Shown here in pieces: positions 854 to 16,097 of a stretch of 16,097 nt of DNA. Source of the DNA: a virus. The notes beneath the pieces are model-generated. The model was not told the DNA's origin. It did no database searches and saw only the letters and a program-made list of their open reading frames with translations. Both the position numbers and the translations under genes were made by a program. The stretch lies in UHGV virus genome UHGV-1827629. The stretch is one strand, 5' to 3'. Within the stretch, counting starts at the first letter, position 1. The number at the start of each line of letters is the position of its first letter.

Positions 854-856
854 GGG

Positions 857-1291
857 TTAGTCCTCACCTTTCTGTTGCACTACCGGAACCGATAAATCGA
901 CGCACCAGGAGATAACGCCGAATTGATCATCGTTCTGCGCTTCACCCCAAACGTAATATTTTGATCCTGGCCGACCCATTGCCGGGTCAAATACTTCTAT
1001 GCCGCGTTCTGCCGTTAACGACATCAGAATCTGATGCAGGCCGCCTTTGATGTTCAGTGACGGAACGGTCAGGAAGTAAATAAACCCGTAAAGCAATTCG
1101 GCCTTGCGCTGGCTTCCGTAAAAATACGGGATTTTGTAATAATCCAGCGCGTCGTCGAGCCAGTCTGTTTTGTCGTGGAATTTCTGATGCCAGCGTTCCA
1201 CTACCTCATCGACAGGTTGACCGGCAACCATTGCAACGCAGGTAGCCATGCAGGTGTTAAATGTTGGCTGCATTTGATGTTGAAGCATCAC
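857..1291 (-). CDS. Hypothetical phage protein (144 aa), Cys/His-containing
   Basis: ORF track; start overlaps the upstream gene's stop in an ATGA arrangement (1288-1291); stop sits inside the SD of the next gene. No confident family assignment. Confidence 0.5.
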   Translation of the reverse strand: MMLQHQMQPTFNTCMATCVAMVAGQPVDEVVERWHQKFHDKTDWLDDALDYYKIPYFYGSQRKAELLYGFIYFLTVPSLNIKGGLHQILMSLTAERGIEVFDPAMGRPGSKYYVWGEAQNDDQFGVISWCVDLSVPVVQQKGED

Positions 1292-1893
1292 TCCCCCTTA
1301 CCGATGCCAGCGGCGCGGTCTATGCGTTCGATTTCAGCCAGAATTAAAGCCCCTGCTTTTACCAGGTTGCGACGGCGGGCATTTGGCTTCCACCATGAAG
1401 CATCCCAAGGCCACCCCCACGGCTTGCCACCATTGCGGTTAACAGTTCCTGTTTCGTTTATGTAACAAACCGCCGCCATTGCCAGTTCCCCGTTGCAGTG
1501 TTCGTCATCATGCTCTGGCATCCACCCCTCAACCGATTGTTGCCGCTGGCGCTCTGCTATCACATCCAGAAGTGCAGGATTGAACGCCAGCACCTCCAGT
1601 TCAGCAATCCGCTCCTCATACCGAGCGCCAACGGAAACGGCTTTATGGAAGGCTTCGCACCATTTGGACGATTGCGCCTGCATCTTCTCCAGCTCATCCA
1701 TCAGCGCCAGCACGGTAGTGGGGTTTGCTGCGGAGTTCAGCGCGTTCAAGGCAGTGATATCTGCATCAAGCTGAGTTCCTTCTGCCAGTGAGATATCGAA
1801 AATGTCATCAGGCGGCATAACACTAAGGCGCTCATGTGCGCCAACTGCTGCCGCTGCGATTTCACGCAGCGCCTGTTTGTCGATGTTGCTCAT
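1288..1893 (-). CDS. Conserved phage protein (201 aa) with C-terminal motif WPW...WWKP...RRNLVKAGALILAEIER (Ead/Ea22- or DUF550-like, uncertain)
   Basis: Internal ATG at 1891-1893 (M19 of the track ORF, MSNIDKQALRE...) overlaps the upstream stop as ATGA; the track's N-terminal extension lies inside the upstream gene. Family from memory only. Confidence 0.5.
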   Translation of the reverse strand: MSNIDKQALREIAAAAVGAHERLSVMPPDDIFDISLAEGTQLDADITALNALNSAANPTTVLALMDELEKMQAQSSKWCEAFHKAVSVGARYEERIAELEVLAFNPALLDVIAERQRQQSVEGWMPEHDDEHCNGELAMAAVCYINETGTVNRNGGKPWGWPWDASWWKPNARRRNLVKAGALILAEIERIDRAAGIGKGE

Positions 1894-2507
1894 TGGGCTG
1901 CCTCCTGGCGAAGTTGGGCGGCGCGAATTGCTTTCCACTGCGACCACATTCCGTTGTAATCAGTACCGGAAAGAGTTGAGTTGCGGTAGCCGTCATCAGT
2001 GCGCAAACCTTCTAGCGTGGTCTTAGAGATGAATATCTTCTCCATTACCCATTCTTCGAATAAATCACGCTCCGTCGCTTCATCTGGAATAGCACTTGCC
2101 CGTACTTCAGCCAGGAAAGCGTCGGTGGCTGGGGTTTCACAGTAAGCAACACGCAAATTAGGCATGCACTTATCCATCATCTGCTCCATTTCGCCAGGCT
2201 CAGCAGCAGCCCAATGAGCCAATGTTTCTTTCGCTGCCGCCTTCAGCCCCGCATTCTCCGCCGCCAGCTCCCTGCACTTGCTCTCGGCGTTAGCGAGCTG
2301 TACTGCCATGTCTGTGACTTCGGCTTCAAGTTTTTCAGCATATTCAATCAGGAGATCGATTCTTTCCGGCGTTACGGTTTTAACGTATTTGCAAATCGAT
2401 GACGCATAATTATCATCCTGGAGTGTGCCAGCCAGGCCATTACAAAATTTGCGGTTCCCTTTTGTCGCCTTGATATCGGCGATGATTTTTTTAACATCTG
2501 GTTTCAT
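1890..2507 (-). CDS. Coiled-coil phage protein (205 aa), possibly Ead/Ea22-like
   Basis: Internal ATG at 2505-2507 (MKPDVKK...) overlaps the ren stop as ATGA; the upstream part of the track ORF is Arg/Gly/Pro-rich and lies inside ren. Confidence 0.5.
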   Translation of the reverse strand: MKPDVKKIIADIKATKGNRKFCNGLAGTLQDDNYASSICKYVKTVTPERIDLLIEYAEKLEAEVTDMAVQLANAESKCRELAAENAGLKAAAKETLAHWAAAEPGEMEQMMDKCMPNLRVAYCETPATDAFLAEVRASAIPDEATERDLFEEWVMEKIFISKTTLEGLRTDDGYRNSTLSGTDYNGMWSQWKAIRAAQLRQEAAQ

Positions 2508-2803
2508 GCTGACACCCTCCCGTAAAACGCCAGTACACGCTTCATTGCCACGCTGTTGCGGCATTCCTGAAATATTCCGTTGGTGCAGCTGCGCGCTGTA
2601 CCAGCTTGCTCTTCCGGCGTCGCCAGGCGATAAGTCACCGTTCGCCAGACCTTGCTCACGCGGACAATCTTGCGGGACCGTTCCAGATCGATAGCATTCT
2701 TCGTGATGCAGTTGATGGTCATGCCGCACTCTGTGGCCACATCCTTCGCGGTGAAGGTCCGGTGCGTTTCGAGATAACGCAGAATTGCCTGTTTGCCTTT
2801 CAT
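2504..2803 (-). CDS. ren: Ren-like protein (99 aa)
   Basis: MKGKQAILRYLETHRTF...KVWRTVTYRLATPEE...FQECRNSVAMKRVLAFYG matches my memory of lambda Ren (MTGKEAIIHYLGTH...KVWRTVYYRFATREE...FKECRQSAAMKRVLAVYG); located directly after P as in lambda; ATG 2801-2803 overlaps P stop. Confidence 0.7.
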   Translation of the reverse strand: MKGKQAILRYLETHRTFTAKDVATECGMTINCITKNAIDLERSRKIVRVSKVWRTVTYRLATPEEQAGTARSCTNGIFQECRNSVAMKRVLAFYGRVSA

Positions 2804-3594
2804 TGGATAAGCCCTCTCTCTTTCCCTCGCTGATACTCTTCCCAAAGCCATTGGGCCGGGGTTAGAGCTCCGAGAGTCGCTGCGTTTGGCATGCACCCGA
2901 AGCTTTTTCCTTCCGGGTGATAACCGGCCTGACGGCTCACGTGATTTGTCGGGATCACTTCATCAGAATTCTCGAGCGCCAGGACGGGGGATGGTATTTT
3001 TTCCCCACCAGCAACTTTCAGCGCCCATTCCTCAAGTTTTTTTGACGCGTATTTTTCAGTTTCAGCCTCGCTCAGCTGGCGCTGGTACATCGCTCTGCGC
3101 GTATCGGTCACAATCCAGTACATGACGTCATGAGACCACGGGAAAGCTTCTGCTCCGCCGGTATGCAGCCCTTTTTCGCGGCTATACCGATGGAACTCAT
3201 TCATCACATCAGCCAGGCCAATGCCAAGTACCGTGCCGCTATCCTTGCACCATTTGATGAATTGCCCCGGAGAAGGCCAGAAGGGTGATTCACTGGCGCG
3301 GGCATGCCGTACACCTGCGGAAAGTTGTTCGCGGGTGCGGATCCCATTCTCTGAAAACGCTGCGATCCACTGACGCTTTGCCGTTTTCTCGTCTGCGTCA
3401 GTTTTCAGGTTTGTCTGCGTAGACGCAGGGAAAATCTGCTTCAGCTGCCGAAAGAGAGAATCAACGAGGCTTTCCGCTTCGGGATTTATTACCTTCTGCT
3501 GGTCGGCGTTTCCGTTAGCCATTCTGGATAGCAGTGCCCCGTCACGCCCGTTAACTGCCTGCACAAGTTGGTTATTCACAGGAAGTCCTCCCAT
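2800..3594 (-). CDS. P: Replication protein P-like (DnaB helicase loader)
   Basis: Central block FPAS...RQWIAAFSENGIRTREQLSAGVRHARASESPFWPSPGQFIKWC resembles lambda P (FPAS...RQWVLAFRENGITTMEQVNAGMRVARRQNRPFLPSPGQFVAWC, from memory). Start uncertain: ATG at 3594 overlaps O by 19 nt; alternative ATG at 3522. Confidence 0.75.
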   Translation of the reverse strand: MGGLPVNNQLVQAVNGRDGALLSRMANGNADQQKVINPEAESLVDSLFRQLKQIFPASTQTNLKTDADEKTAKRQWIAAFSENGIRTREQLSAGVRHARASESPFWPSPGQFIKWCKDSGTVLGIGLADVMNEFHRYSREKGLHTGGAEAFPWSHDVMYWIVTDTRRAMYQRQLSEAETEKYASKKLEEWALKVAGGEKIPSPVLALENSDEVIPTNHVSRQAGYHPEGKSFGCMPNAATLGALTPAQWLWEEYQRGKERGLIQ

Positions 3595-4265
3595 CCCTCG
3601 CGGCTGTTCCAGTGAGGCGTTTCCTGCTCAGCACGTCCACGTTTAGCCAGCGGGTTAACCCTGGCGTTTCGAATCCAGACCCTGAAAGCCGAATTCCAGT
3701 CGATCAGCAGCGTGCCGCGGGAAAGGTGATAGTCCCGGAAGTTCAGCAGCTCAGTTTCAATGCTCACCCCCTTCTCGGCAGCCATGGCAATGTGATCTGC
3801 TGATGGCTTAAACAGGGGCGGGAATGGAATCTCCCCGTTTGGTGAAATCCCTATCCGACGTTTTGCGGCTTCGCTCATAAAACCTTCGCGCCCAGAGAGA
3901 GAGTTAGGTTCATTGACTGGTTCAAAAGAGTGACTGATTCTGGGTGCAGCTCCTGCACTACCCCCTAGTGAATCTGTTGCACTACCTAGTGAATCTCCTG
4001 CACTACCCCCTAGTGAATCTGTTGCACTAGGTAAGGTCAGGATGTAGATGTTTGTAGAGTTCCCTTTTGGCCCCTTCCTGAATACTTTTTTCAGTAATCC
4101 AGATTGGCAGAGATCATCAATGTGACTCATGACTGACCGCTTGCTAATTTCGCATTGGTCAGCAATGTATTGATAGCTTGGCCAGCATTCCCCTTGATCG
4201 CTTGCGTTATCTGCCAACTTCAGGAGTACGAGCTTACGCAATGGGTTACCAACCTTAATTTGCAT
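3576..4265 (-). CDS. O: Replication initiator O-like protein (replisome-organizer HTH N-terminus; ori iterons inside the gene)
   Basis: N-terminus [45 protein letters not shown] looks like a replisome-organizer HTH; gene lies between cII and P; contains direct repeats translated as [26 protein letters not shown]. Start ambiguous: ATG 4265 (SD-like GGTGA), 4277 or 4286; the track's 4376 is a TTG extension overlapping the zinc-finger gene. Confidence 0.7.
3952..4030. repeat. Candidate replication-origin iterons: alternating 24-bp (CCTGCACTACCCCCTAGTGAATCT) and 21-bp (GTTGCACTACCTAGTGAATCT) direct repeats, each with a CACTA...TAGTG dyad
   Basis: Read directly: units at 3952-3975, 3976-3996, 3997-4020 and partial 4021-4030, all inside the O reading frame, as lambda ori iterons are. 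Confidence 0.65.
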
Positions 4266-4464
4266 GGCTTTCACCATTAGCATCATGCTCACGATGCAGC
4301 CTCCTGTTATTACTGAATACAAGGTTGACACACTCAAATACGCACTCGTCGCAGATACAAACTCCATCACCGGCAATTATCATGGCGACTTCGTTGTTAT
4401 TTTTTCCGCAAAAAGAGCATTTGTGTGTCGGGTGTAAATTTGCTTTTTTCACATCAATTGGCAT
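4255..4464 (-). CDS. Small C4 zinc-finger protein (69 aa) resembling the ClpX N-terminal zinc-binding domain
   Basis: [32 protein letters not shown] parallels the ClpX ZBD as I recall it ([30 protein letters not shown]); strong SD AGGAG 5-6 nt before ATG at 4462-4464. Confidence 0.6.
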
Positions 4465-4546
4465 AATTGCTCCTGTGAATTGATCCAGTTAATTCCACCT
4501 GAAAGCCGTTGGTGTTCCAGCACCGCGGCTTTTCCCCTTTCTACGT

Positions 4547-4768
4547 TCATGCTTCAAAATCTCCATTCACCCCATCCCGGTTTGAAATCAGGATTGCCAG
4601 CAAAAGCGACATGTTCGGAAGCAGGTTTTCCCGCCAGCGACTCACCGTTGATTTGTTAACGCCAGCCACTTCTGCGATTTTTGTCGTACCCAGTTCTGCT
4701 ATCTGGCTGTGTAACCAGCTCTCTATCCTCCGGGCCTCCAGTTTGTTGCGTGTTGTTAAGGTGTCCAT
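4547..4768 (-). CDS. cII: CII-like transcriptional activator (73 aa)
   Basis: LEARRIESWLHSQIAELGTTKIAEVAGVNKSTVSRWRENLLPNMSLLLAIL resembles lambda CII (RIESALLNKIAMLGTEKTAEAVGVDKSQISRWKRDWIPKFSMLLAVL, from memory); GAGGAAG SD upstream; position immediately after cro. Confidence 0.7.
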   Translation of the reverse strand: MDTLTTRNKLEARRIESWLHSQIAELGTTKIAEVAGVNKSTVSRWRENLLPNMSLLLAILISNRDGVNGDFEA

Positions 4769-4808
4769 TTGCGATACTTCCTCTGATTTAATTGGTTATT
4801 GCCGCCGG

Positions 4809-5036
4809 TCAGGCAGCATGGTTCTCTGGGTGTGGAAACAGGTCGGGAAGATCAGGTCGAATTTCGTGTGCCTTAATCTCGCCACCAGTAGCGTTTACGA
4901 TGGCTGTTACTTTTTCCGGAGATACGGAACCACCGTTAAGCCACTTGTGAACCGCTGGCTGGCTAACGCCGCAAATATCTGCGAGTCGCTTCTGGCTGCC
5001 AACGATTTCTAAAGCTCGTTGAATAACTTTGTTCAT
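4809..5036 (-). CDS. cro: Cro-like HTH repressor (75 aa)
   Basis: Short HTH protein (LADICGVSQPAVHKWLNG) transcribed divergently from cI across the operator region. Confidence 0.65.
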   Translation of the reverse strand: MNKVIQRALEIVGSQKRLADICGVSQPAVHKWLNGGSVSPEKVTAIVNATGGEIKAHEIRPDLPDLFPHPENHAA

Positions 5037-5072
5037 GGATTTTACCTATCCGATTACTGGATTAATGAAAAG

Positions 5073-5135
5073 ATAACCTAAGTTATGACCATTGTCCATA
5101 ACCTTTGTTATTTTACTCTGCATAACCTGAGTTAT
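5073..5135. promoter_or_regulatory. OR: three 14-bp operators ATAACCTAAGTTAT (5073-5086), ATAACCTTTGTTAT (5098-5111), ATAACCTGAGTTAT (5122-5135); pR/pRM region
   Basis: Three near-palindromic sites spaced 25 and 24 bp between divergent cro and cI; TATATT -10-like hexamer at 5135-5140 ends 6 nt before the cI ATG. Confidence 0.7.
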
Positions 5136-5146
5136 ATATTGGCGCT

Positions 5147-5851
5147 ATGAAAACATTCGCAGATCGACTCAACGCGGCTATGAGAGCCGCAGGCATATCC
5201 CAAGGGCAGCTGGCTGAGAAAGTCGGCATATCTCAACCTGCAATTCAGAAAATGACATCAGGCAAAACCACAGGCAGCCGTAAGATGGTTGAGCTTGCTC
5301 ATGCATTGAACGTGCGTCCGGAATGGCTCAGTTCGGGCATAGGCTCAATGCAGGACGAAGGACGCAAGGACTCCGCTATCCCACCAGAATCGGAATGGGG
5401 TAAAGTTGACGCTTGGGATAGCAAAACAGATCTGCCAGATGACGAGGTCGAAGTGCCATATCTGAAAGACATAGAACTTGCGTGTGGTGATGGTTCCTGC
5501 TTGGAAGATGACTATAACGGATTCAAACTTCGTTTTGCGAAGTCTACCCTTCGTAAGGTGGGAGCCCAGAAAGATAGCGTGCTGTGCTTCCCGGCATCAG
5601 GAAATAGCATGGAGCCCATGATCCCGGAAGGGACGACGGTCGCCATCAACACGAACGACAAAAAGATCGTTGATGGCAAGGTTTATGCAATAAGCCAGGA
5701 CGGATGGAAAAGGCTAAAATCCATTTATCGTGTGAGTCCTACCCGCATCGTGATTCGCAGCTTCAACAGTGAAGAGTATCCTGATGAAGAAGCGGATATC
5801 GAGAGCGTAGAGATTATTGGTCGCATGTTCTGGACATCTACTATCTGGTAA
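5147..5851 (+). CDS. cI: CI-like phage repressor (N-terminal HTH, C-terminal S24 LexA-like peptidase domain)
   Basis: HTH motif QGQLAEKVGISQPAIQKM; C-terminal GNSMEPMIPEGTTVAINT...WKRLK is the S24 Ser/Lys signature; divergent from cro across OR; no SD and ATG close to the putative -10. Confidence 0.85.
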   Translation: MKTFADRLNAAMRAAGISQGQLAEKVGISQPAIQKMTSGKTTGSRKMVELAHALNVRPEWLSSGIGSMQDEGRKDSAIPPESEWGKVDAWDSKTDLPDDEVEVPYLKDIELACGDGSCLEDDYNGFKLRFAKSTLRKVGAQKDSVLCFPASGNSMEPMIPEGTTVAINTNDKKIVDGKVYAISQDGWKRLKSIYRVSPTRIVIRSFNSEEYPDEEADIESVEIIGRMFWTSTIW

Positions 5852-5865
5852 TCAAGAGGGAAGGG

Positions 5866-6555
5866 ATGAAATTAGAACTAATAGCATTATCTTTACTGGC
5901 TTTAACTACGAACGCAATCGGCTCTAGCACCCTGAGCTGCGATTACGCTAAGTCGGACATCAGTAATGGAGCTAATGCTCCAATGATTCCTAGCGGAAAA
6001 GGCACTGTCGAATTTGATGGAAAATCCTTTAAAGCCACACGTCCAAATGGTGGTGTGATCATTTCACCAATAATCAGTGAACAAAAAAATGGAATGCTTT
6101 TTCTTGACGACAAGACAAAAGTGTTCGCGGCAAGCCTTTCTAAAACTGATTTCGCTATCTCTGACCGAATTGCTCGAATTACTGAGCAATGGGCCAACTG
6201 CATTGATGTTAGTCCATCGCCGAACAATTCAGATAACGACAAACCGGCAACTGCCTGGAAATATAGGTCTCTCACGAAGCAGGAGATAAATGCTGTTGAG
6301 GCAGCAGTGAAAGACCAATTGAAGGATCCAGAAAGTGCCAGATTCAAGCACTCTAAGTTTGTGAGCAACGGGAAAGGCGCTTACTGCGGCCTGGTTAATT
6401 CCAAAAACTCATATGGCGGCTATGCTGGAAACACTCCTTTCATGGTCATGCTTATCAACAATGGCAAACCTCACGCTGGCTTTATTGGTATGGGCGGAGA
6501 TGATGCCGAGACCCTGTCAACGCTATCCGTCTGCAAAGACAGTGGTTATTTCTAA
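5866..6555 (+). CDS. Secreted (signal-peptide) protein of unknown function, 229 aa, 4 Cys; moron in the rexAB-equivalent slot
   Basis: N-terminus MKLELIALSLLALTTNAIG-SS is a typical Sec signal peptide (AxG cleavage site, not a canonical lipobox); SD GAGGGAAGGG before ATG; visibly more AT-rich than flanks with rare Leu/Ile codons; followed by an intrinsic terminator. Confidence 0.65.
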   Translation: MKLELIALSLLALTTNAIGSSTLSCDYAKSDISNGANAPMIPSGKGTVEFDGKSFKATRPNGGVIISPIISEQKNGMLFLDDKTKVFAASLSKTDFAISDRIARITEQWANCIDVSPSPNNSDNDKPATAWKYRSLTKQEINAVEAAVKDQLKDPESARFKHSKFVSNGKGAYCGLVNSKNSYGGYAGNTPFMVMLINNGKPHAGFIGMGGDDAETLSTLSVCKDSGYF

Positions 6556-6573
6556 ACCCCACCTTGATTGAAA

Positions 6574-6596
6574 GCCCCGCATTGCGGGGTTTTTTA
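6574..6596 (+). terminator. Rho-independent terminator ending the cI-moron transcript
   Basis: GCCCCGC-ATT-GCGGGGT hairpin followed by a T-run at 6590-6596, 19 nt after the moron stop codon. Confidence 0.75.
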
Positions 6597-6660
6597 TTGC
6601 CAGAAATCCCCCCACGCCACATTTTTTACAAAAATAAATTCATTTAGCTATCAGTGCATT

Positions 6661-6720
6661 ATAACTTATGTGATGATAATTATAAATTAGGTTATTGCCA
6701 TCACTCATAACTAAGGTTAT
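6661..6720. promoter_or_regulatory. OL: three operators ATAACTTATGTGAT (6661-6674), ATAAATTAGGTTAT (6682-6695), ATAACTAAGGTTAT (6707-6720), inverted relative to OR
   Basis: Reverse complements fit the OR consensus ATAACCTnAGTTAT; spacing 21 and 25 bp; positioned as in lambda between the cI operon terminator and the leftward early operon. Confidence 0.7.
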
Positions 6721-6723
6721 CTT
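6695..6723 (+). promoter_or_regulatory. Candidate pL (-35 TTGCCA 6695-6700, 17-bp spacer, -10 TATCTT 6718-6723)
   Basis: Sigma70-like hexamers with canonical spacing, overlapped by OL sites 1 and 2. Inference only. Confidence 0.5.
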
Positions 6724-7349
6724 TAATCCATCGAAACGAAACATCGACAGCTGAGCGAAGTTAGCCAGCGGCGGACAGCAAGTCGCCTGCTTCTTTAACA
6801 AATCAGACTGAGTGACAGGCAAGCCGTAGCTCTCCTGGCAAAAAGAAATGGCACCCGATGGGATCGAGGTAAGCACTGAGTCCGTATGCGTACGGTAGGT
6901 GTAGAGGACCACGCTGCGATGAGCTGATAAGTCACTCAATTTGAAGCGCTCCGATGATGGGGCGCTGATTCAACTTAGAGGAGTGATTCCAATGAAGAAC
7001 TAAAGCGGACAGACCGCAGCCTAAAGGCAATGCAGCAGTAATGATGCCGCCCTGAGTCGCCGAATGGCGAGCCTGTGTAGTGATGGGTCAAGGTTCTTAT
7101 ATCAAAACAAGCTCCGGTAAAGCAGCGCGAACGCCAGACGCGCACCGGTTATGAGCGGCGATGAGCGACAAGGTCTCAAGGGCATGTGCGCGGCCACTGC
7201 GAGAGTGTGGCGAAGTTTACCAGCAGCTCTTTGCGAGGGGCTGACGGTAAACAAAAAGAGGAGTGTGTATGGCAGATAAAAAAACGGCGCCACTACTGCT
7301 TAACGTAGACGCCAGCGAGGTACTTACTCAGACCGGGGAGCTTTTAAAG

Positions 7350-7571
7350 TTACTTGAACTTCCAGCCAGTTCCTTTCAGGGAATTCCTGAGCATGTCGTC
7401 GATCTGTTTTTTGACCGTGTCCGTGGCCTGATTGACAACATCGTCCTTAGTGATTTCTCGACCACAGTCAGCACAACTGACGCCGGTGAAATTTGTCTCA
7501 AAGTCAAAATCATCGGGCTGGTTGAACATCTCACTTCCGCAGTCAGGGCACACGGTCCGCATGGTTTGCAT
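7350..7571 (-). CDS. Small zinc-ribbon protein (73 aa; CPDCG...CADCG)
   Basis: Two CxxCG knuckles 22 residues apart; AAAGGA SD 7 nt before ATG (cat 7569-7571); by my hand count this frame is more coding-like than the overlapping + frame. The + ORF 7269-7610 is an unresolved alternative. Confidence 0.5.
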   Translation of the reverse strand: MQTMRTVCPDCGSEMFNQPDDFDFETNFTGVSCADCGREITKDDVVNQATDTVKKQIDDMLRNSLKGTGWKFK

Positions 7572-7829
7572 GAATATATCCTTTCTACTGTTGGGGAGAT
7601 TAAAGAGTAAGCGATTTCTTGCTGTTGGGGAATAGCGGGAAAGCGCGCGCCGGGCGCGGATAAATACCCCGGCACTAACTGGAATGTTTTGGGCTGGCAG
7701 ACGGTTATCAGCTAGTTGGTGAGGTAATGGCTCACCAAGGCGACGACGGCCTTCCCTGCTGCTTGAAAGCGGGGAGCCAGCACCAAAACATTTCTCCCGC
7801 ATCAGCGGGTAACGACAGAGGGTAAGGCT

Positions 7830-8105
7830 ATGAAAACAAGTAGCGGACAAGAGATTTTAAAGGGATTCAATGTTCGTGATATCTCTGCTGATTATGACGA
7901 GCCAAGGTTTGATGTTTTGTTTGTCCACGATGATGGCAAATGCCGGTATTCAAACGATGTTTTTGGTTCTGAGCAAGAAGCCATCAGTTACGCAGAAACA
8001 TGTAACGCCAGCACAGCAGACGATGAATGCTGGGACTACTACCAGCACTCTTCAAGCAGCGCCGACTGGAAGCTGATTCATCACATTGAAGCTAAAGCCG
8101 CCTAA
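7830..8105 (+). CDS. Hypothetical early protein (91 aa, acidic, Cys-containing)
   Basis: SD AGAGGGTAAGG before ATG at 7830; stop codon lies in the loop of an intrinsic terminator. Confidence 0.55.
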   Translation: MKTSSGQEILKGFNVRDISADYDEPRFDVLFVHDDGKCRYSNDVFGSEQEAISYAETCNASTADDECWDYYQHSSSSADWKLIHHIEAKAA

Positions 8106-8119
8106 CCAGCGGCTTTTTT
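8096..8119 (+). terminator. Rho-independent terminator (tL1-like)
   Basis: AGCCGC-CTAACCA-GCGGCT hairpin followed by TTTTTTA (8114-8120). Confidence 0.65.
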
Positions 8120-8260
8120 ATCGGCCATACATAGGCAGATTTTCGAGTCTGCCCATTTATGACAACCGGCGGCCATCCACCGCCCATTGAAACACTGAAT
8201 AAATGCGTTGAAGTCTTGTATTAACCGTTCCGTTCGCCGCGATAAGGCCAAGAGGAAATC

Positions 8261-8389
8261 ATGGTAAACCAGCAGCAGATCAGAGAGGCCCAACGGCTCG
8301 CGTCGTTCGCGGTGCTCCATCGCAATGCTCCGGCGTGGGAAGAAGCAAAACGCCTTTACGCCGTCGCCATCGGGAGGACTCTTCACTGA
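8261..8389 (+). CDS. Small hypothetical protein (42 aa)
   Basis: ATG at 8261 with AAGAGGA SD; stop TGA overlaps the next ATG (TGATG at 8387-8391). Below the ORF-track length cutoff; read by hand. Confidence 0.35.
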   Translation: MVNQQQIREAQRLASFAVLHRNAPAWEEAKRLYAVAIGRTLH

Positions 8390-8586
8390 TGGAAACTTTA
8401 TTCGCACTCGTCCTTACCGTGGCAATGACCAACGGTGATTATCAGGATGTCATTCTCGGCGTTTACGACAGCCAGCAGGAATGCAGCCTGGCAGCTACAG
8501 AGCAGAAAGTGTCAGCTGAGTGCTGGCCGGTAGAAAGCATCATCCGCAACGGCGAGTTCCCGGCGAAATCCATCGCGCAGCAGTAA
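8389..8586 (+). CDS. Small protein (65 aa) with hydrophobic N-terminus (METLFALVLTVAMT), possibly membrane-associated
   Basis: Internal ATG of track ORF 8335-8586; GGGAGG SD upstream; translationally coupled to the preceding small ORF. Confidence 0.5.
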   Translation: METLFALVLTVAMTNGDYQDVILGVYDSQQECSLAATEQKVSAECWPVESIIRNGEFPAKSIAQQ

Positions 8587-8656
8587 CCACCCTATTCAAC
8601 CGATCGGCCTGGCATTACGCGGGCGAGTTCTGCACATCCAAATTTCAGGAGAAACC

Positions 8657-9628
8657 ATGAGCGAAGTAACGGACTTAACTGTCATCGAAATCAAGCCGGA
8701 ACAGGCCCCAGTGCTTTACGTAGCGGGCGGCCTTGACGCGTACCTTGAGCAAATCCGCCAGGCTGTAAACGAAGTGCCGGACCTGTCCACGAAGAAAGGC
8801 CGTGACCGTGTTGCCTCTCTGGCAGCGCAGGTGTCCCGCAGCAAGACGGCAATCGAAAAGCCGGGCCGTGAGTACCTGAAGCGCCTGAAAGAGGCTGTGC
8901 GTCCGGCTGAGGCCGAAATTAAGCGATTCGTTGATGCCTGCGACGAGCTGCGCGATGCGACCCGCCGCCCACTCACCGAATGGGAAGCCGAGCAGGAACG
9001 CATTAAGGCTGAAGAAGCCATGAACGCGATGCACGCCGAAGCGCTGGAGATGAACATCAGGTTCGATCAGGAGCTGGCTGCCAAGTTCGAAGCGGACCAC
9101 GAAATGGCTCTACTGATGAACAAGGATTTTGACCGTGACCGCGAAGAGCAGCGCCGTCTGGCGGAACAGGCTCAGCGTGAACGTGATGAGCGGCTGAAAC
9201 AGGAAGCGGCAGAACAAGCCCGCCGCGATGCCGAAGCGAAGCACAAAGCGGAGATTGAAGCCGCAGCGCGCCGTGAAGCTGAAGAGAAAGCACGTGCAGA
9301 GCTGGCTGAACGCCAGCGCGTCGAAGCGGAACAGCGTACAGCTCGCGAGAAGCAGGAAGCAGAAGCCCGGGCAGAACGCGAAAAAGCCGCGGCGGTTGAA
9401 GCCGAGCGCCTGAAGGCCAAACAGGCCGAAGATGCCCGCCTGGCCGAAGAGAAGCGCCTCGCCGATGAGCAGGCAAAGCGTGAAGCTGACGTTAAGCACC
9501 GCAAGACGGTCGGCACCAACATCGTTAACGCGCTCACCAGCCACACCAGCTTAACCCGCGAACAGGCTATCGAAGTGCTTACCGCTCTGAAAGATGACCT
9601 CATCCCCTGCGCGAAAATTCATTACTGA
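8657..9628 (+). CDS. Large charged coiled-coil protein (323 aa) with an extended Glu/Arg/Lys/Ala-rich central helix; function unknown
   Basis: SD CAGGAG before ATG at 8657; ~150-residue central stretch of AEEKARAELAERQRVEAEQRTAREKQEAEARAEREK type; conserved-looking globular ends. Confidence 0.7.
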   Translation: MSEVTDLTVIEIKPEQAPVLYVAGGLDAYLEQIRQAVNEVPDLSTKKGRDRVASLAAQVSRSKTAIEKPGREYLKRLKEAVRPAEAEIKRFVDACDELRDATRRPLTEWEAEQERIKAEEAMNAMHAEALEMNIRFDQELAAKFEADHEMALLMNKDFDRDREEQRRLAEQAQRERDERLKQEAAEQARRDAEAKHKAEIEAAARREAEEKARAELAERQRVEAEQRTAREKQEAEARAEREKAAAVEAERLKAKQAEDARLAEEKRLADEQAKREADVKHRKTVGTNIVNALTSHTSLTREQAIEVLTALKDDLIPCAKIHY

Positions 9629-9635
9629 GGCAACC

Positions 9636-9761
9636 ATGAACGCATACCTCACTTACGACCGAATCGAAGATCGGCGCTGGGTTGAGCAGCAGCTCACCGA
9701 CGAGAAGGAGAAGTGGATCGACGACCGGGCGAAAGAACTGATCGCCATGTTCCCGAAATAG
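9636..9761 (+). CDS. gam: Gam-like (RecBCD inhibitor) N-terminal fragment, 41 aa, apparently truncated
   Basis: MNAYLTYDRIEDRRWVEQQL resembles the start of lambda GamS ([22 protein letters not shown], from memory); GAGG SD; sits immediately upstream of bet as gam does in lambda, but stops after 41 codons. Confidence 0.4.
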   Translation: MNAYLTYDRIEDRRWVEQQLTDEKEKWIDDRAKELIAMFPK

Positions 9762-9820
9762 AAGAAGAGTGGGATCGCCTTCATCCAACCTGCCCGTTTT
9801 AATTTTTGAGGGGATTAACG

Positions 9821-10666
9821 ATGGCAAACGAATTAACAATCACAGCGAAGTCGCTTCAGGAGATAGGCGTCGACGTCTCCACATGGAGTGCACTGAAGAA
9901 CAGCATCTACCCTGGCGCCAAAGACGAATCGGTAATGATGGCGCTTGACTACTGCCGCGCCCGCCAGCTGGATCCGTTGCTCAAACCTGTCCACCTCGTT
10001 CCGATGTACGTTAAAGACTCGAAAACAGGTAAAGGTGACTGGCGCGACGTGGTCATGCCGGGCATCGGGCTTTACCGCATTCAGGCAGACCGCTCTGGCG
10101 ATTATGCCGGGGCACGGGAGCCTGAGTTCGGGCCCGATGTAACTCAGACGCTTACTGGTGTCGAGGTGACCTTCCCTCAGTGGTGCAAATACACCGTTTT
10201 CAAGCGCATGCCCAGCGGCGAGATCGTCGAGTTCAGCGCCAAAGAATACTGGATTGAAAACTATGCCACCGGCGGCAGCGAAACAACGGCGCCGAATGCG
10301 ATGTGGAAAAAGCGCCCATACGGACAGCTGGCGAAATGCGCGGAAGCCCAGGCGTTGCGTAAGGCATGGCCTGAGATTGGACAGCAGCCTACCGCCGAAG
10401 AAATGGAAGGAAAATCACTGGATGTTGATATCCGTGACGTCACGCCGCGCAGCACAACAGAATCACTTCCACCAGCAGCAAGCGAAGAAACGCTTCAGGC
10501 GATAACCGATCTCTTAACATCGCTGAATAAAGACTGGGAGCAAGACTTCCTCCCAGTTTGCAGCGACATCTTCAAACGGCCAATTCTTGAGGCGTCAGAC
10601 CTCACTGAAGAAGAGGCACAGAAAGGGTTCAACTTCCTTCAGAAAAAAGCTAAGGCGGCAGCATGA
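9821..10666 (+). CDS. bet: Bet/Red-beta family single-strand annealing protein
   Basis: C-terminus [55 protein letters not shown] matches lambda Bet's C-terminus from memory; N-terminus divergent but same pattern; stop overlaps exo start (ATGA); SD GAGGGG before ATG 9821. Confidence 0.8.
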
Positions 10667-11343
10667 CACCAGAAATTATCTTTGCCCGCACCGGTGTTGA
10701 CGTAACCACTATCCAACAGGGCGATGAGGCGTGGCACCGGCTGCGCCTCGGCGTCATTACTGCCTCAGAAGTACACAACGTCATATCCAAGCCGAGATCG
10801 GGTAAGAAGTGGACAGATATGAAAATGTCCTACTTCCACACGCTGCTCGCGGAGGTATGCACAGGCGTGGCGCCAGAGGTTAACGCCAAGGCGCTGGCCT
10901 GGGGCAAGCAGTACGAGGAAGACGCCCGCACCCTCTTCGAGTTCACAACTGACGTGAAAGTCACGGAGTCTCCGATCCTGTTCCGTGACGAGAGCATGCG
11001 CACCGCGTGCTCCCCTGACGGCCTATGCAGTAACGGGTTCGGCCTTGAGCTTAAGTGCCCTTTCACCTCTCGCGATTTCATGAAGTTCCGCCTTGGCGGT
11101 TTCGAAGCCATCAAGTCTGCGTACATGGCCCAGGTGCAGTACAGCATGTGGGTTACCGGAAAAGACGCCTGGTTCTTTGCCAACTACGACCCGCGCATGA
11201 AACGCGAAGGTATTCACCACGTCGTCGTTGAGCGGGATCCACAGTACATGACCGATTTCAACGAAATGGTGCCGGATTTCATTGAGAAGATGGACGAAGC
11301 GCTGGCGGAGATCGGCTTCACGTTCGGAGAGCAGTGGAAATGA
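10663..11343 (+). CDS. exo: Lambda-type 5'-3' exonuclease (Red-alpha / YqaJ family)
   Basis: Near full-length similarity to lambda Exo as I recall it (MTP.II..RTG.DV...[63 protein letters not shown]...ALAEIGF.FGEQW). Confidence 0.95.
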
Positions 11344-11440
11344 AACGCACACCCTTCTATCGCCGGCCAGGGCGAGCCGGGCAATTCTCGGGCCTCCGCG
11401 AGCAAGTCCATGGAGAATTTGCAAATCATGGGGGCAAGTC

Positions 11441-11659
11441 ATGACATCTGAAACAGACAACGCCATCCGCGCCGCCTGCCGTCGCTGCACCGAGAAAATC
11501 CAGCAGGCCATGCGCAAGAAGCCAAAGCCTAACTGGAACGAAACGGTGCCTCCCATCATCAACAAGCATCATAAGAAAATTGAAGCTCTGGGAGTTAGCC
11601 TCCTGGAGTTCGTCGTATACACAGGGCGGCTTAATCGCCGCTTCGGAGCAGAACAATGA
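11441..11659 (+). CDS. Hypothetical protein (72 aa), first gene of a coupled three-gene cassette
   Basis: Internal ATG of track ORF 11282-11659 (MTSETDNAIRAACRRC...); stop overlaps the next ATG as ATGA. Confidence 0.5.
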   Translation: MTSETDNAIRAACRRCTEKIQQAMRKKPKPNWNETVPPIINKHHKKIEALGVSLLEFVVYTGRLNRRFGAEQ

Positions 11660-12522
11660 CAACAAAAAAATGGGGTCATAACGAGCTTGCTCATGACCTT
11701 GCAGAGCATTTGCGCCAGAACACAGCGCGCATCTGCTGGGAGGATATGCAGCTTGGGCCCGCCGGAACGTGCCGACCTGATGTCTACTCTATTGCTCACA
11801 GCTACAGCAAGTTCTGCCCAGTCGTCTATGAGGTTAAAGTCAGCGTAGGTGATTTCCGGGCTGACGTTACAGCAGGCAAATACACCAAATACTTCAGCTA
11901 TGCAGGTGGCGTTGTTTTTGCAGTTCCTGAAGGCATGCTCAAGAAAAGCGACATCCCAGATGGTTGTGGCTTGATGATCCGGAAGGAAACTGGATGGCAT
12001 ACCCTCAAGGGGCCGACAATGCGCCAGATTGATAACCTACCTCGCGACGCCTGGATGAAGTTGCTTATGGATGGCATGAAGCGACAGGCAGAGAGAACCC
12101 AAATAAAAAATCGCGTAATCAACACCTACCTCAGCGAACAAAAACTTATGAAGCGACATGGCAGCGAAATCGCCGATCTTGTTTGTCGAGCGCATCGGTC
12201 GAAGGAGCGGCTTGAGCAGCAGGTTAGGGATAACGATGAAAGGCTGAAGAACCTGCGCCAGGAAAGTGAGGAGGAGATGCAACGCCGACGTAAGCGCCGG
12301 GAGGAATCGGAGGAAAGGTTAACCGACGCTCAGCAAGGTCTGGCGAAAGCACTTGGCCTCGACCCGAATGTCCCTATGTATGTTCTGACAAGGACGCTAT
12401 GGGAAGCAATGCGCCGACTGACCGAGGATGAAGAGATAAAGAGGTTGCGAGGAATATTGTACAACCTTGAGCGCACGCTGAATGACGGTCTGAAACCATT
12501 ACCCGGGGAGAAAGCCGCATGA
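11656..12522 (+). CDS. PD-(D/E)XK nuclease-fold protein (MmcB-like N-terminal domain) with a charged coiled-coil C-terminal half
   Basis: Motif RPDVYSIAHSYSKFCPVVYEVKVS gives a D...EVK PD-(D/E)XK signature; C-terminal ~140 residues are Arg/Glu/Lys-rich coiled coil; ATGA overlaps at both ends. Confidence 0.65.
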   Translation: MTTKKWGHNELAHDLAEHLRQNTARICWEDMQLGPAGTCRPDVYSIAHSYSKFCPVVYEVKVSVGDFRADVTAGKYTKYFSYAGGVVFAVPEGMLKKSDIPDGCGLMIRKETGWHTLKGPTMRQIDNLPRDAWMKLLMDGMKRQAERTQIKNRVINTYLSEQKLMKRHGSEIADLVCRAHRSKERLEQQVRDNDERLKNLRQESEEEMQRRRKRREESEERLTDAQQGLAKALGLDPNVPMYVLTRTLWEAMRRLTEDEEIKRLRGILYNLERTLNDGLKPLPGEKAA

Positions 12523-12710
12523 ACAAAGCCTCGCCCGTTGATTTGAGGAAGAGCATCGAAATTGCCAATCACCTAGCCCACATCGGGATTCGCTTTGTGC
12601 CGATTCCTGTGGCGACCGAGGAAGAATTCCAGACGCTGGCCGCCGAGCTTTCACTACGGCTTGAGCAGATGGCAGTCGAAGCCGAGAAGAATGAAGGCGG
12701 TGCAGCATGA
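12519..12710 (+). CDS. Hypothetical protein (63 aa), last gene of the cassette
   Basis: ATG 12519 overlaps the upstream stop; GGGGAG SD; followed by an intrinsic terminator. Confidence 0.5.
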   Translation: MNKASPVDLRKSIEIANHLAHIGIRFVPIPVATEEEFQTLAAELSLRLEQMAVEAEKNEGGAA

Positions 12711-12725
12711 AGGCACTGATCACCG

Positions 12726-12750
12726 GGTCGCTAAAGCGGCCTTTTTTATT
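12726..12750 (+). terminator. Candidate rho-independent terminator
   Basis: GGTCGC-TAAA-GCGGCC hairpin (one G-U pair) followed by TTTTTTATT. Confidence 0.55.
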
Positions 12751-12798
12751 GCTGGCGTTCACCTTCAACCGAATTAACAGACAGTTCGCGGAGTGACT

Positions 12799-13098
12799 AT
12801 GGAAGATTTTAAAGGCACTAAAGGTAATTGGTCATATAGCAAAGAGACCGGAACAATTCGCGGTAATGGTGGCCTTCTCGCTGAGTTACTGATTAATGGT
12901 TCCGAAGACCATAACGGCACGCTCATGGCTGTCGCTCCTGAATTGCTGGAAGCACTGCAATTATCACTTACCGCCATGAATGAAATGGGTGACATCCTAA
13001 ATTTTCACGACATGGCAGATGCAGAATCAGTAGAGAAGCTCACTCCAGCATTTGAAATGGCTAGAACTGCTATCAACAATGCCCTCGGTAAGGAGTGA
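12799..13098 (+). CDS. Hypothetical protein (99 aa)
   Basis: ATG at 12799 with GCGGAG SD (the track's 12793 start is a GTG two codons upstream); stop adjacent to the next gene's SD. Confidence 0.5.
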   Translation: MEDFKGTKGNWSYSKETGTIRGNGGLLAELLINGSEDHNGTLMAVAPELLEALQLSLTAMNEMGDILNFHDMADAESVEKLTPAFEMARTAINNALGKE

Positions 13099-13100
13099 CC

Positions 13101-13322
13101 ATGTCCGATATCATCGACACAGCAGCAGAGATTGAAGAGCTTCAGCGTAACGCTGCCCTTTCCGCTCACCGGATCAACCGCAACGCCGTCTCAGCTGAGC
13201 ATTGCGCGGAATGCGACGAAAAAATCCCCGAGCCGCGCCGCGCTGCCGTTCCCGGCTGCAAGACGTGCTCCAGTTACCAGGAAGAAATCGAATTGAGGAA
13301 TAAGCAGAGGGGGATCCAGTGA
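13101..13322 (+). CDS. TraR/DksA-family C4 zinc-finger protein
   Basis: CAECDEKIPEPRRAAVPGCKTC shows the CxxC...CxxC spacing of the TraR/DksA zinc finger; AAGGAG SD before ATG 13101. Confidence 0.7.
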   Translation: MSDIIDTAAEIEELQRNAALSAHRINRNAVSAEHCAECDEKIPEPRRAAVPGCKTCSSYQEEIELRNKQRGIQ

Positions 13323-14004
13323 AAGATCGTGGAATGATTTTTAATGAGTATCAGGTGCGCGCCTTGCTTGATGGCAGCATGACGCAGGTTCGGCGCCCTT
13401 CAAATGGCGTCATACTCGGGCTACTGAAATTGCAGAGCGCGACGACGGAAGCATGTGGCCATGGAGCGAAGATGAGGAGCACGTGTGCGATTACTGGCAT
13501 CCATGTCCATTCGGTGCAGTTGGCGATGCGATTTATGTCAGAGAGTCATTTTCACGGCTCGACGCATTTAACTTCTTTGATCCGGCAGTTCCTCAAGAAG
13601 TCCCGGACTTCTGGTATTGGGCCGATGGTGAGCCAGAATGGGGAGACTGGACACGTCCACAATCTGGCGCAGTAATGCCTCGCGCCGCCAGCCGAATCAC
13701 CCTGGAGATAACCGGCATCCGAGTCGAGAAACTTCAGACGGCTAATGAATCAGACTTGCTGAATGACCTTGGCGACATGCTCGAACACTGCGAAACCGTA
13801 GCTGGACGAGCCTTCAACCATGCCGAGCATTATGCGATCGCTGGCGTTCCGGTAGGGCTGTGTCCAGAAATGCACGGCTTTAAAGCGTGGTGGGATAAGG
13901 CCAATGGCGAAGGTAGCTTCGACTCCAACCCTTGGGTCTGGGTAATCGAATTTAAGGTGGTGCCCAATGTTCCAGCTAATTCAACGGGGTCAGATTTACG
14001 CTGA
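13319..14004 (+). pseudogene. ASCH-like phage protein interrupted by a frameshift (N-terminus in one frame, C-terminus in another)
   Basis: Frame of 13319/13334 encodes MIFNEYQVRALLDGSMTQVRRP, then degenerates and stops at 13675; the frame ending at 14004 opens after a TGA at 13369-13371 and encodes ...CPFGAVGDAIYVRESF...PRAASRITLEITGIRVEKLQ. Both halves fit one ASCH-like protein family from memory. Confidence 0.5.
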
Positions 14005-14206
14005 CCAGCACGGTTGGCCCGTCATCATCCACAGTTGCACATCACAGATAGTCCGCTACTGGCGACAGGGCCGGATCAACACCGCTTCAATCGACCGCTT
14101 TAATAACGATTTCGAACACCTCGATCACCGTGAGGCGGCGCAGATACGCGCCGAACTGGAGACGAGCGAGCACATTAAATCGCTGCGTGCCCGGCGCGCG
14201 GCATGA
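13967..14206 (+). CDS. Hypothetical protein (79 aa)
   Basis: ORF track; overlaps the ASCH-like C-terminus by 38 nt; start uncertain. Confidence 0.4.
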   Translation: MFQLIQRGQIYADQHGWPVIIHSCTSQIVRYWRQGRINTASIDRFNNDFEHLDHREAAQIRAELETSEHIKSLRARRAA

Positions 14207-14215
14207 GGAGAGAGC

Positions 14216-14542
14216 GTGAAACCTTACGAATCGAAGAAATCACAGTTCACCAGAAACCTGATCCGTCGGCGCCACGCTGAATGGTCAGAAAAGACCTTCG
14301 GTAATGTCGGCCCTATCGGACCGCTGAAACACCTTTCGAAAGAAGCGCTGGAAGCTGCCGCCGATCCTGGCGACCTCAGCGAGTGGGCTGATATGCAGTT
14401 CCTGCTTTGGGACGCGCAGCGGCGCGCCGGTATCACCGATGAGCAAATCACCGCGGCGATGGAAGAAAAGCTGAAGGTGAATATGGCTCGCCAGTGTCCG
14501 GAGCCGAAAGACGGCGAACCGCGACTTCACATCAAATCCTGA
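14216..14542 (+). CDS. MazG-like nucleotide pyrophosphohydrolase-type small protein (DUF550-like)
   Basis: GTG start with AGGAG SD; LKHLSKEALEAAADPGDLSEWADMQFLLWDAQRRAGI resembles the MazG-type helical motif. Family from memory. Confidence 0.55.
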   Translation: MKPYESKKSQFTRNLIRRRHAEWSEKTFGNVGPIGPLKHLSKEALEAAADPGDLSEWADMQFLLWDAQRRAGITDEQITAAMEEKLKVNMARQCPEPKDGEPRLHIKS

Positions 14543-14649
14543 CGCAACTGATAGCCAGTTATGAGCTGGCTATTGGGTGCGAAAGCACTGCCACGTTATC
14601 CCCCATTTGCCCGGCCATAGTGCCGGGTTCTTTTTGCCTGGAGTATCCG

Positions 14650-14997
14650 ATGGAAGAAATAATTTTCACCCGCGACGAGGCGGCGAACTTCCTGCGCGTC
14701 AGTGAAGGGACTGTGGCCGAATGGATAAAGTCTGGAAGACTCGCCGCTACCCGCAAAAATCCCGCTAAAAAGAAAAGTCCATATCTCATCTGCAAGACAG
14801 ATTGCATTGCAGCGTTGAAGAACACGATCCACAATCAGCCGGTGAATGCGGTTGATGTGCAGGAGGGTAAAGCATGTCAATCAAACAACGTGCCGGTACG
14901 TGGCACTGCGACTTCGTTACGCCTGGTGGCGTCAGAATTAGACGGTCTCTTGGCACAACGGACAAAAGGCAAGCGCAGGAACTCCATGATCAGCTAA
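14650..14997 (+). CDS. xis: Excisionase (AlpA/Xis-type HTH), 116 aa
   Basis: [36 protein letters not shown] is an excisionase-type HTH; GGAG SD before ATG 14650; immediately upstream of and overlapping int by 124 nt in another frame. The track's 14494 start is probably an extension. Confidence 0.6.
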
Positions 14998-16037
14998 AAG
15001 CTGAAGCGTGGCGTGTAGACAAGATGGGGGAATATAAGGCGCACACTTTTGATGAAGCATGTGTGCGCTGGCTGAACGAGAAGCAGCATAAGAAGAGCCT
15101 GGACGATGATAAAAGCCGGATCGGATTCTGGCTTATGCATTTCCGGGGAATGGACCTGTCCGAGATTACAGAGGATAAAATTCTCTCGGCCGCCAGTGGA
15201 ATGGTAAACAGGAAGCACAGACTTAATTGGGAGTCACGGAGGGATAGTTGCCTCAGGATGGGTAAGCCTGTTCCCGAGTACAAGGAAAAGCCAGCAGCAC
15301 AGGCAACCAGAACAACACACCTTGCTTTCATTCGGGCTTTGCTCAGATGTGCGGCTAACGAATGGCGATGGATAGCCAAAGCGCCGAATATCAAATGCCC
15401 TGTTCCAAAGAACAAACGTATTCGATGGCTGACAAAAGATGAGGCGCAGTCATTAATACGTGAATTGCCTGACCACTTTAAGCCGGTGGTTGTTTTTGCT
15501 CTGGCAACGGGATTGAGGCGATCCAACATAACGGATCTGGAATGGTCTCAGATAGACATGCAGAGGAAGGTTGCGTGGATACACCCAGAGGATGCAAAAG
15601 CAGGCAGGGCGATTGGGGTCGCCCTTAATGATTCTGCATGCAGGGTATTACGCGATCAGGTAGGAAAGCACAATCGGTGGGTGTTCGTTCACACTGAATC
15701 ATCTGTTCGTCCGGATGGAACCAGGACTAAAGAGGTCAGGAAGATGAGGAGCGATGCTAACACAGCGTGGAGGGCTGCGTTAAGAAGAGCCGGAATTGAA
15801 AACTTCCGTTTCCATGATTTGCGGCACACCTGGGCAAGCTGGCTTGTGCAGTCCGGCGTTCCGTTATCAGCGCTTCAGGAAATGGGAGGTTGGGAGAGCA
15901 TTGAAATGGTTCAGCGCTATGCTCACTTAGCACCGAATCACCTGACGCAACATGCGATGCAAATTGACTCATTTCTGGCAGGAAATGGCACAAATATGGC
16001 ACAAGGCACGTTTGCAGACTTGGTGAATATCGCGTGA
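14874..16037 (+). CDS. int: Tyrosine site-specific integrase (P22/P4-like)
   Basis: N-terminal arm-binding motif [31 protein letters not shown]; C-terminal catalytic region [39 protein letters not shown] with the R..H.R.Y residues; strong SD AGGAGGG; ends 16 bp before the tRNA 3' end. Confidence 0.95.
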
Positions 16038-16052
16038 AGCCGCGTGGTTACT

Positions 16053-16097
16053 GGTGCCGATAATAGGAGTCGAACCTACGACCTTCGCATTACGAAT
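16053..16097 (-). tRNA. thrW: tRNA-Thr (anticodon CGU), 3' portion only (anticodon arm, T arm, acceptor 3' strand, CCA); 5' part lies beyond the window
   Basis: Reverse complement reads ATTCGTAATGCGAAGGTCGTAGGTTCGACTCCTATTATCGGCACCA: anticodon loop with CGT, GGTTCGA T-loop, 3' CCA. Matches my memory of enterobacterial thrW, a known prophage integration site. Confidence 0.75.

Follow-up and report, generated by a model that had tools for sequence, protein, structure and literature searches.

The locus upstream of bet in the virus genome UHGV-1827629 raises the question of whether a lambdoid prophage has kept Red-type recombination while losing its RecBCD inhibitor. At face value, this is what the assembled sequence describes, and such a loss, if true, would bear on the balance that a phage strikes between using and replacing host recombination. 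The original prediction, made from the letters of the window (the whole 16,097-nt stretch of DNA that was analysed), placed a 41-codon ORF of the Gam family upstream of bet and exo, and this ORF is present as described. As set out below, gamL is most likely intact and ordinary, the assembly being in error; both the gene and its arrangement are known.

The whole window corresponds to the immunity and early-left region of a lambdoid prophage. Its gene set comprises P, cII, cro, a cI-like repressor, DUF1482, agt, gamL, bet, exo, an MmcB-like gene, and an integrase. The locus as assembled contains the following features.

8657–9628, + strand: agt/mog homologue, 323 aa, apparently intact, 80% identity to phi80 Agt
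9636–9761, + strand: 41-codon ORF, 5' part of gamL, with ATG at 9636 and TAG at 9759–9761; product MNAYLTYDRIEDRRWVEQQLTDEKEKWIDDRAKELIAMFPK
9760–9761, no strand: joint inside gamL, with 115 nt of gamL absent between both bases
9761–9802, + strand: 3' end of gamL, codons for EEEWDRLHPTCPF and TAA, out of frame with respect to the ATG at 9636
9821–10666, + strand: bet, 281 aa, RecT/Bet-family single-strand annealing protein, intact (PF03837, E = 6.8e-28; TIGR01913 bet_lambda, 129 bits)
10663–11343, + strand: exo, 226 aa, lambda exonuclease family, intact (PF09588 YqaJ, E = 2.6e-31)

The end of the 41-codon ORF is separated by 60 nt from the bet ATG at 9821, the ribosome-binding site of bet (GAGGGG) lies at 9808–9813, and exo comes next after bet. 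The bet product has the same length as in E. coli 20A24, and the annotation of exo in relatives reads 'lambda exonuclease family protein'. The alignment of the window Agt with phi80 Agt extends over the full length (E = 7e-153). The protein belongs to PHROG 1376, which is placed in the function class unknown, and its 323-aa sequence matched no Pfam, NCBIfam, or PADLOC family. In the phi80 record, the gene is named 'anti-toxin for Gam' or 'modifier of Gam' (Mog).

Three further observations concern other parts of the window. Adjacent direct repeats of ~41 nt, 95% alike and detected as secondary BLAST matches, were located at 3944–3984 and 3989–4029 within the replication-protein gene (O-like, HTH_36); they look like iteron-type origin repeats. 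Downstream of exo, at 11656–12522, lies the gene for the 288-aa MmcB-like protein (PF06319, E = 3.8e-6), which has a long charged C-terminal coiled-coil tail and whose relatives are labelled 'MmcB family DNA repair protein'. Chi sites (GCTGGTGG) were found on the minus strand at 3005–3012 and 10469–10476, one of them within bet. Chi enrichment, which might mark a phage that lives without inhibiting RecBCD, was not significant in the window (2 sites versus 0.56 expected, with 23 of 200 shuffles reaching 2).

Family identity and predicted fold of the gamL product

The ORF had been described as beginning like lambda GamS. Its resemblance to the Gam family held up, and its assignment to lambda GamS gave way to one to phi80-type GamL. 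The translated ORF matched the NCBIfam model NF033500 (phi80 GamL) with 80.6 bits (cut-off 40; E = 6.5e-23) over model positions 1–41 of 89, and PHROG 1050, 'gam-like host nuclease inhibitor', with an E-value of 4e-20 over positions 1–41 of 92. The match to the Pfam Gam model PF06064 reached 14.9 bits, under the gathering score of 25 (E = 0.033), and covered the N-terminal 30 residues only, while the pairwise comparison with lambda Gam gave a marginal alignment with 15/33 identities (E = 4e-5). At the DNA level, the ORF is ~97–99% identical to the 5' part of intact gamL genes, and DNA searches matched phi80 and about 105–115 complete E. coli genomes. The matching gene in these complete genomes is annotated as gamL, encodes 93–94 aa, and is located between a 323-aa gene and bet or recT. 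The order agt, gamL, annealing protein, exonuclease was also found in phi80, E. coli 20A24, 1218KP, and many NCBI assemblies. Judged by these sequence matches, the 41-codon ORF is the 5' 44% of a phi80-type gamL, far beyond chance.

The lengths of related proteins set the ORF apart. No homologues conserved at its length appeared in our survey of GamL, in which 120 of the 131 significant clusters were listed and about 100 of those 120 are 92–94 aa. Measured against this full length and the conserved C-terminal half, the ORF as assembled falls short, ending after residue 41, whereas gamL as rebuilt with contigs from the run's other assemblies encodes 93 aa, including that C-terminal half. The nearly invariant C-terminal residues of GamL are Y68, N69, D70, A80, E81, W84, C91, P92, and F93. 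A 41-aa product would lose these residues. If the truncation were real, the original inference of a non-functional inhibitor would be reasonable.

The AlphaFold model of a full-length member of the family, P0035 (pLDDT 80.3), contains helices at residues 3–38, 43–46, 53–58, and 62–87. A Foldseek search of this model against the PDB returned lambda GamS for all top matches (TM 0.57–0.74), including 5mbv_A (TM 0.74/0.70) and 2uuz_A (TM 0.71/0.74), and the Gam fold, a long N-terminal helix followed by a C-terminal helical part, is present in the P0035 monomer model. Furthermore, GamS ranked first when the GamL profile was compared with PDB sequences (E = 0.1). The predicted fold agrees with the published description of Gam and GamL as different sequence types with similar predicted folds, in which the mechanism of GamL is not established (PMC12315714). 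Based on the full-length model, the stub is predicted to cover only the long N-terminal helix (3–38), and it would lack everything corresponding to the dimerisation part, as the original prediction had anticipated.

In lambda, a GamS dimer occupies the DNA site of RecBCD, and one N-terminal helix plugs the 3'-ssDNA channel of RecB (PMC5218532). The inhibitor role of GamL is taken from record annotations and from Rotman et al. 2012 as cited in PMC12315714; the phi80 records annotate gamL as 'host RecBCD/SbcCD enzymes inhibitor' and as 'toxic without Mog'. An intact GamL would be expected to adopt the lambda-Gam fold as a small helical protein, to inhibit host RecBCD (the phi80 record adds SbcCD), and to be expressed from pL along with Bet and Exo. 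We also observed full-length gamL without the upstream 323-aa agt/mog gene in three E. coli prophages (L021, 5310–5591; L034, 13067–13351; L035, 13297–13581), although the phi80 record calls gamL toxic in the absence of Mog.

The joint within gamL and other assemblies of the run

The alignment with full-length Gam proteins and with the downstream frames, which had been proposed as a check, revealed the origin of the early stop. In comparison with phi80 and with closer intact 93-aa gamL alleles, the window lacks 115 nt between ...CCCGAAATA, which ends at 9760, and GAAGAAGAG..., which begins at 9761. The joint 9760|9761 converts Tyr42 (TAT) to a TAG stop, and the 41-codon truncation is therefore due to an internal loss whose joint makes the stop codon. 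The 3' remnant, EEEWDRLHPTCPF followed by TAA, is out of frame in the window and has the same frame and sequence as the end of intact GamL once the 115 nt are restored. No microhomology was detected at the joint with either phi80 or the closest intact allele as the parent. A deletion via a nearby CCGAA repeat was considered and rejected, as was an overlap-merge of contig ends through the same repeat; each would yield a different product.

The joint was not found in any of 5426 complete E. coli genomes, in which all matching records hold an extra 115–118 nt, nor in 50,697 phage records. It was likewise absent from 185,579 species-representative genomes (exact 34-mer and 22-mer scans) and from IMG/VR and the JGI metagenomes (exact 22-mer scans). 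This comparison with relatives, which had also been suggested at the outset, showed that complete E. coli genomes with the matching gene carry gamL at its full length. A look-up of the 41-aa product retrieved no complete gene, only partial genes at contig ends; the four contigs that encode exactly this product are all cut by the contig end and have no stop codon. The 55-aa product from an alternative start of the ORF was not on record in the same type of look-up.

Contigs 100% identical to the window came only from the run ERR1018312, as determined by exact-protein look-ups of the window Agt and Bet. Corresponding look-ups of the repressor and the P protein returned isolate genomes only, both proteins being too common. 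This run (PRJEB10878, sample SAMEA3541596, a human gut metagenome) has been assembled by several pipelines, with the following records at the locus.

ERZ28661497 scaffold_1894, 16033 nt: 100% identical to window 186–9760 and 9761–16097
ERZ27260299 k119_98841 (Megahit): ends exactly at 9760
ERZ27260299 k119_28816: first base exactly 55 nt upstream of 9761; carries wild-type gamL in frame
ERZ920118 k127_56270: no difference from the window as far as 9760, followed by T and about 88 G (poly-G read tail)
Logan contig _25854: ends at 9756
Logan contig _11072: starts 46 nt before 9761, with in-frame wild-type gamL

The scaffold differs from the window solely at the joint, where 66 N and 55 nt of wild-type gamL are inserted. 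The left contig ends at 9760 in three records (L004, L041, and L043), and in two (L009 and L041) the right contig has its first base 55 nt upstream of 9761. Additionally, codon 42 in k127_56270 is TAT (Tyr), as in the intact genes, and not TAG. The missing 115 nt thus consist of ~60 nt that were never assembled and the first 55 nt of the right-hand contig, and the scaffold gap estimate of 66 N fits the 60 nt required for an intact gene. When the 5' part in the window, 60 nt from a near-identical relative, and the right contig were combined, we obtained a 282-nt ORF, the 93-aa product of which is identical to GamL of the E. coli assembly L021. The breakpoints of the truncation are contig ends, and assemblies of the same run hold wild-type gamL on both sides; the proposal that this prophage carries Bet and Exo without an intact Gam was not borne out. 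The window reaches 185 nt further left than scaffold_1894 and therefore represents an independent assembly.

The positions of contig ends elsewhere provide a background to this locus. In public assemblies, contigs often end within the first ~120 nt of gamL, which are highly conserved; many GamL proteins of 45–63 aa are recorded as 'partial', mostly at contig ends, and four unrelated contigs end at codon 41 or within 2 nt of it. These contig ends are likely attributable to a 5' part that is common to alleles or co-resident prophages, followed by a variable middle. In the window itself, a second collapsed gap was considered near 2123–2240, where megahit contigs of ERR1018312 have ends as well (at 2123 and 2131). 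Relatives match this region either up to about 2137 or from about 2236 on, so that it forms a mosaic boundary, and the ERR1018312 sample probably contains several related prophages.

The sole other carrier of the window Agt came from another sample. This contig, ERZ1745020 NODE_2145_length_15579_cov_82.6 (L042), has no gamL. It is 99.885% identical to window 85–9632 over 9.5 kb, with 11 mismatches, and then diverges. Its prophage arm ends 4 nt after the agt stop and enters gloC (last 53 nt), an E. coli core gene present in all 5426 complete E. coli genomes, and the host is therefore E. coli. The contig is either a real prophage remnant without gamL, bet, exo, and int, or a chimeric contig end.

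Origin of the truncation

We attribute the truncation, with a probability of roughly 85%, to an assembly mis-join across a coverage gap and not to biology, the gene in the sample most likely being an intact 93-codon gamL. The locus, which comes from a human gut metagenome as one whole contig, would then be an ordinary recombination module (agt–gamL–bet–exo) of a lambdoid E. coli prophage resembling phi80. The central ~60 nt of gamL would not have been bridged by usable reads, one read there appearing to degenerate to poly-G, which would explain why other assemblies of ERR1018312 stop at 9760 and resume 55 nt before 9761. The assembler of the window may have linked the two dead-end edges as de Bruijn neighbours with a gap of 0 and written the join with a k-base overlap, so that the left contig is followed by the right contig from its 56th base onward (k = 55). 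Consecutive edges of a de Bruijn path are written as e1 + e2[k:], and for ~100-nt reads the default k values of SPAdes/metaSPAdes go no higher than 55. Such a mis-join would remove 60 + 55 = 115 nt, shift the frame, create the TAG, and leave a blunt joint free of homology. With k = 55, both breakpoints would be explained to the base, whereas a real deletion would need a double coincidence. It is from the numerical agreement with 55 that we infer the overlap mechanism; the type of assembler is likewise a presumption.

Some points argue against an artefact. A contiguous de Bruijn contig normally needs k-mers across the joint, and reads with the joint may exist, derived from a real minority deletion or from a chimeric read. 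The window is, moreover, an independent assembly, and real GamL stubs of similar length occur in nature, for instance in Klebsiella aerogenes. A genuine 115-bp deletion allele of gamL, fixed or carried by a sub-population of the prophage in the sample, would inactivate the RecBCD inhibitor and leave agt, bet, and exo intact, and it would perhaps be tolerated or even favoured as GamL is toxic to the host. The window contig reads through the joint free of gaps and of N, the phi80 record lists gamL as toxic when Mog is missing, and disrupted gamL genes are found in databases, among them the frameshifted P0027, P0029, and P0032 and the 46-aa K. aerogenes stub. We nevertheless consider such an allele unlikely. 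Its left breakpoint would coincide to the base with contig ends, and its right breakpoint would fall exactly 55 nt inside the right contig. The same run has wild-type sequence on both sides (T at codon 42; 46–55 nt of the 3' part), the 66-nt scaffold estimate fits the intact length, and the joint occurs in no other genome or metagenome searched. The lack of any microhomology at the joint also argues against this allele, as short direct repeats are usually involved when deletions arise spontaneously in E. coli.

The remaining readings take the short product as it stands. A natural, functional short GamL, in which the N-terminal helix alone acts on RecBCD or Agt, finds some encouragement in lambda Gam, whose N-terminal helix plugs the single-strand DNA channel of RecB (PMC5218532), and in the recurrence of N-terminal GamL stubs in K. 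aerogenes prophages. This form appears very improbable, since we found no conserved family of ~41-aa homologues, the short entries being mostly contig-end partials, and since nearly invariant residues lie in the C-terminal half. The out-of-frame 3' remnant marks a damaged long gene and not a designed short one, and the K. aerogenes stub is accounted for by replacement with a defence-type gene. The chances are just as slim that some of the phage population truly lacks the 115 nt and that the 41-residue helix is a working product. Such a helix could plug the RecB channel as a monomer, or could bind Agt or titrate it, and the K. aerogenes and other N-terminal stubs would then, if this were true, be a retained minimal anti-nuclease peptide and not debris. 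An ORF that arose by chance and is unrelated to Gam could be argued from the sub-threshold Pfam match to lambda Gam (14.9 versus 25 bits). The matches to the two GamL models (6.5e-23 and 4e-20), with which real similarity to Gam is evident, the ~97–99% DNA identity to the 5' part of intact gamL, and the retained synteny with agt, bet, and exo make this the least credible reading, with a probability close to nil. The collapsed gap, our preferred reading, implies that a gene that looks broken in a metagenome contig should be compared with other assemblies or with the reads.

Comparison with known systems

The assembled locus shares several traits with a collapsed-gap mis-join: breakpoints at the contig ends of other assemblies, a missing part equal to the gap plus exactly 55 nt, a blunt join without homology, and an independent scaffold with Ns at the same place.

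The K. aerogenes prophages (L025–L028) provide a biological likeness. They encode, at 2501–2641, a 46-aa GamL stub in which ~38 GamL residues are followed by KGKPVPLI, and the stub was seen in at least five contigs from several samples. Directly downstream lies a gene for a 390-aa protein with a RelA_SpoT domain (2686–3858), which matched PADLOC PDC-S33, a candidate defence family (E = 1.2e-95). In two of the loci, an Arf gene comes next, followed by an AAA_24 gene. Both this stub and the window ORF are N-terminal remnants of GamL at the same place in the early-left operon. In K. aerogenes, the 3' half of gamL appears to have given way to a defence-type moron, and unlike in the window, no agt, bet, or exo was found in the stub loci.

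Like the ORF, lambda Gam (GamS; PDB 2UUZ, 2UV1, 5MBV; PF06064) precedes bet and exo in the pL operon, and the N-terminal motifs of the two are similar (MNAY..DR.E...W). Lambda Gam and GamL are, by contrast, separate sequence families, with 12–17% identity in structural alignments. The names clash as well, 'GamL' in the lambda literature being the long isoform of lambda Gam.

Another close counterpart is GamL of phi80/Lula (YP_007947960, 93 aa; NF033500, PF28165, PHROG 1050), which differs by one residue from the first 41 residues of the ORF and by one residue from the 13-codon 3' remnant in the window. In comparison with phi80 GamL, the window as assembled lacks codons 42–80 and carries a frameshift. 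The annealing proteins differ, that of the window being of the lambda-Bet type with 281 aa and that of phi80 being RecT-like with 305 aa. Both have the same order of agt, gamL, annealing protein, and exo, and the rebuilt gamL of the window encodes 93 aa, as in phi80.
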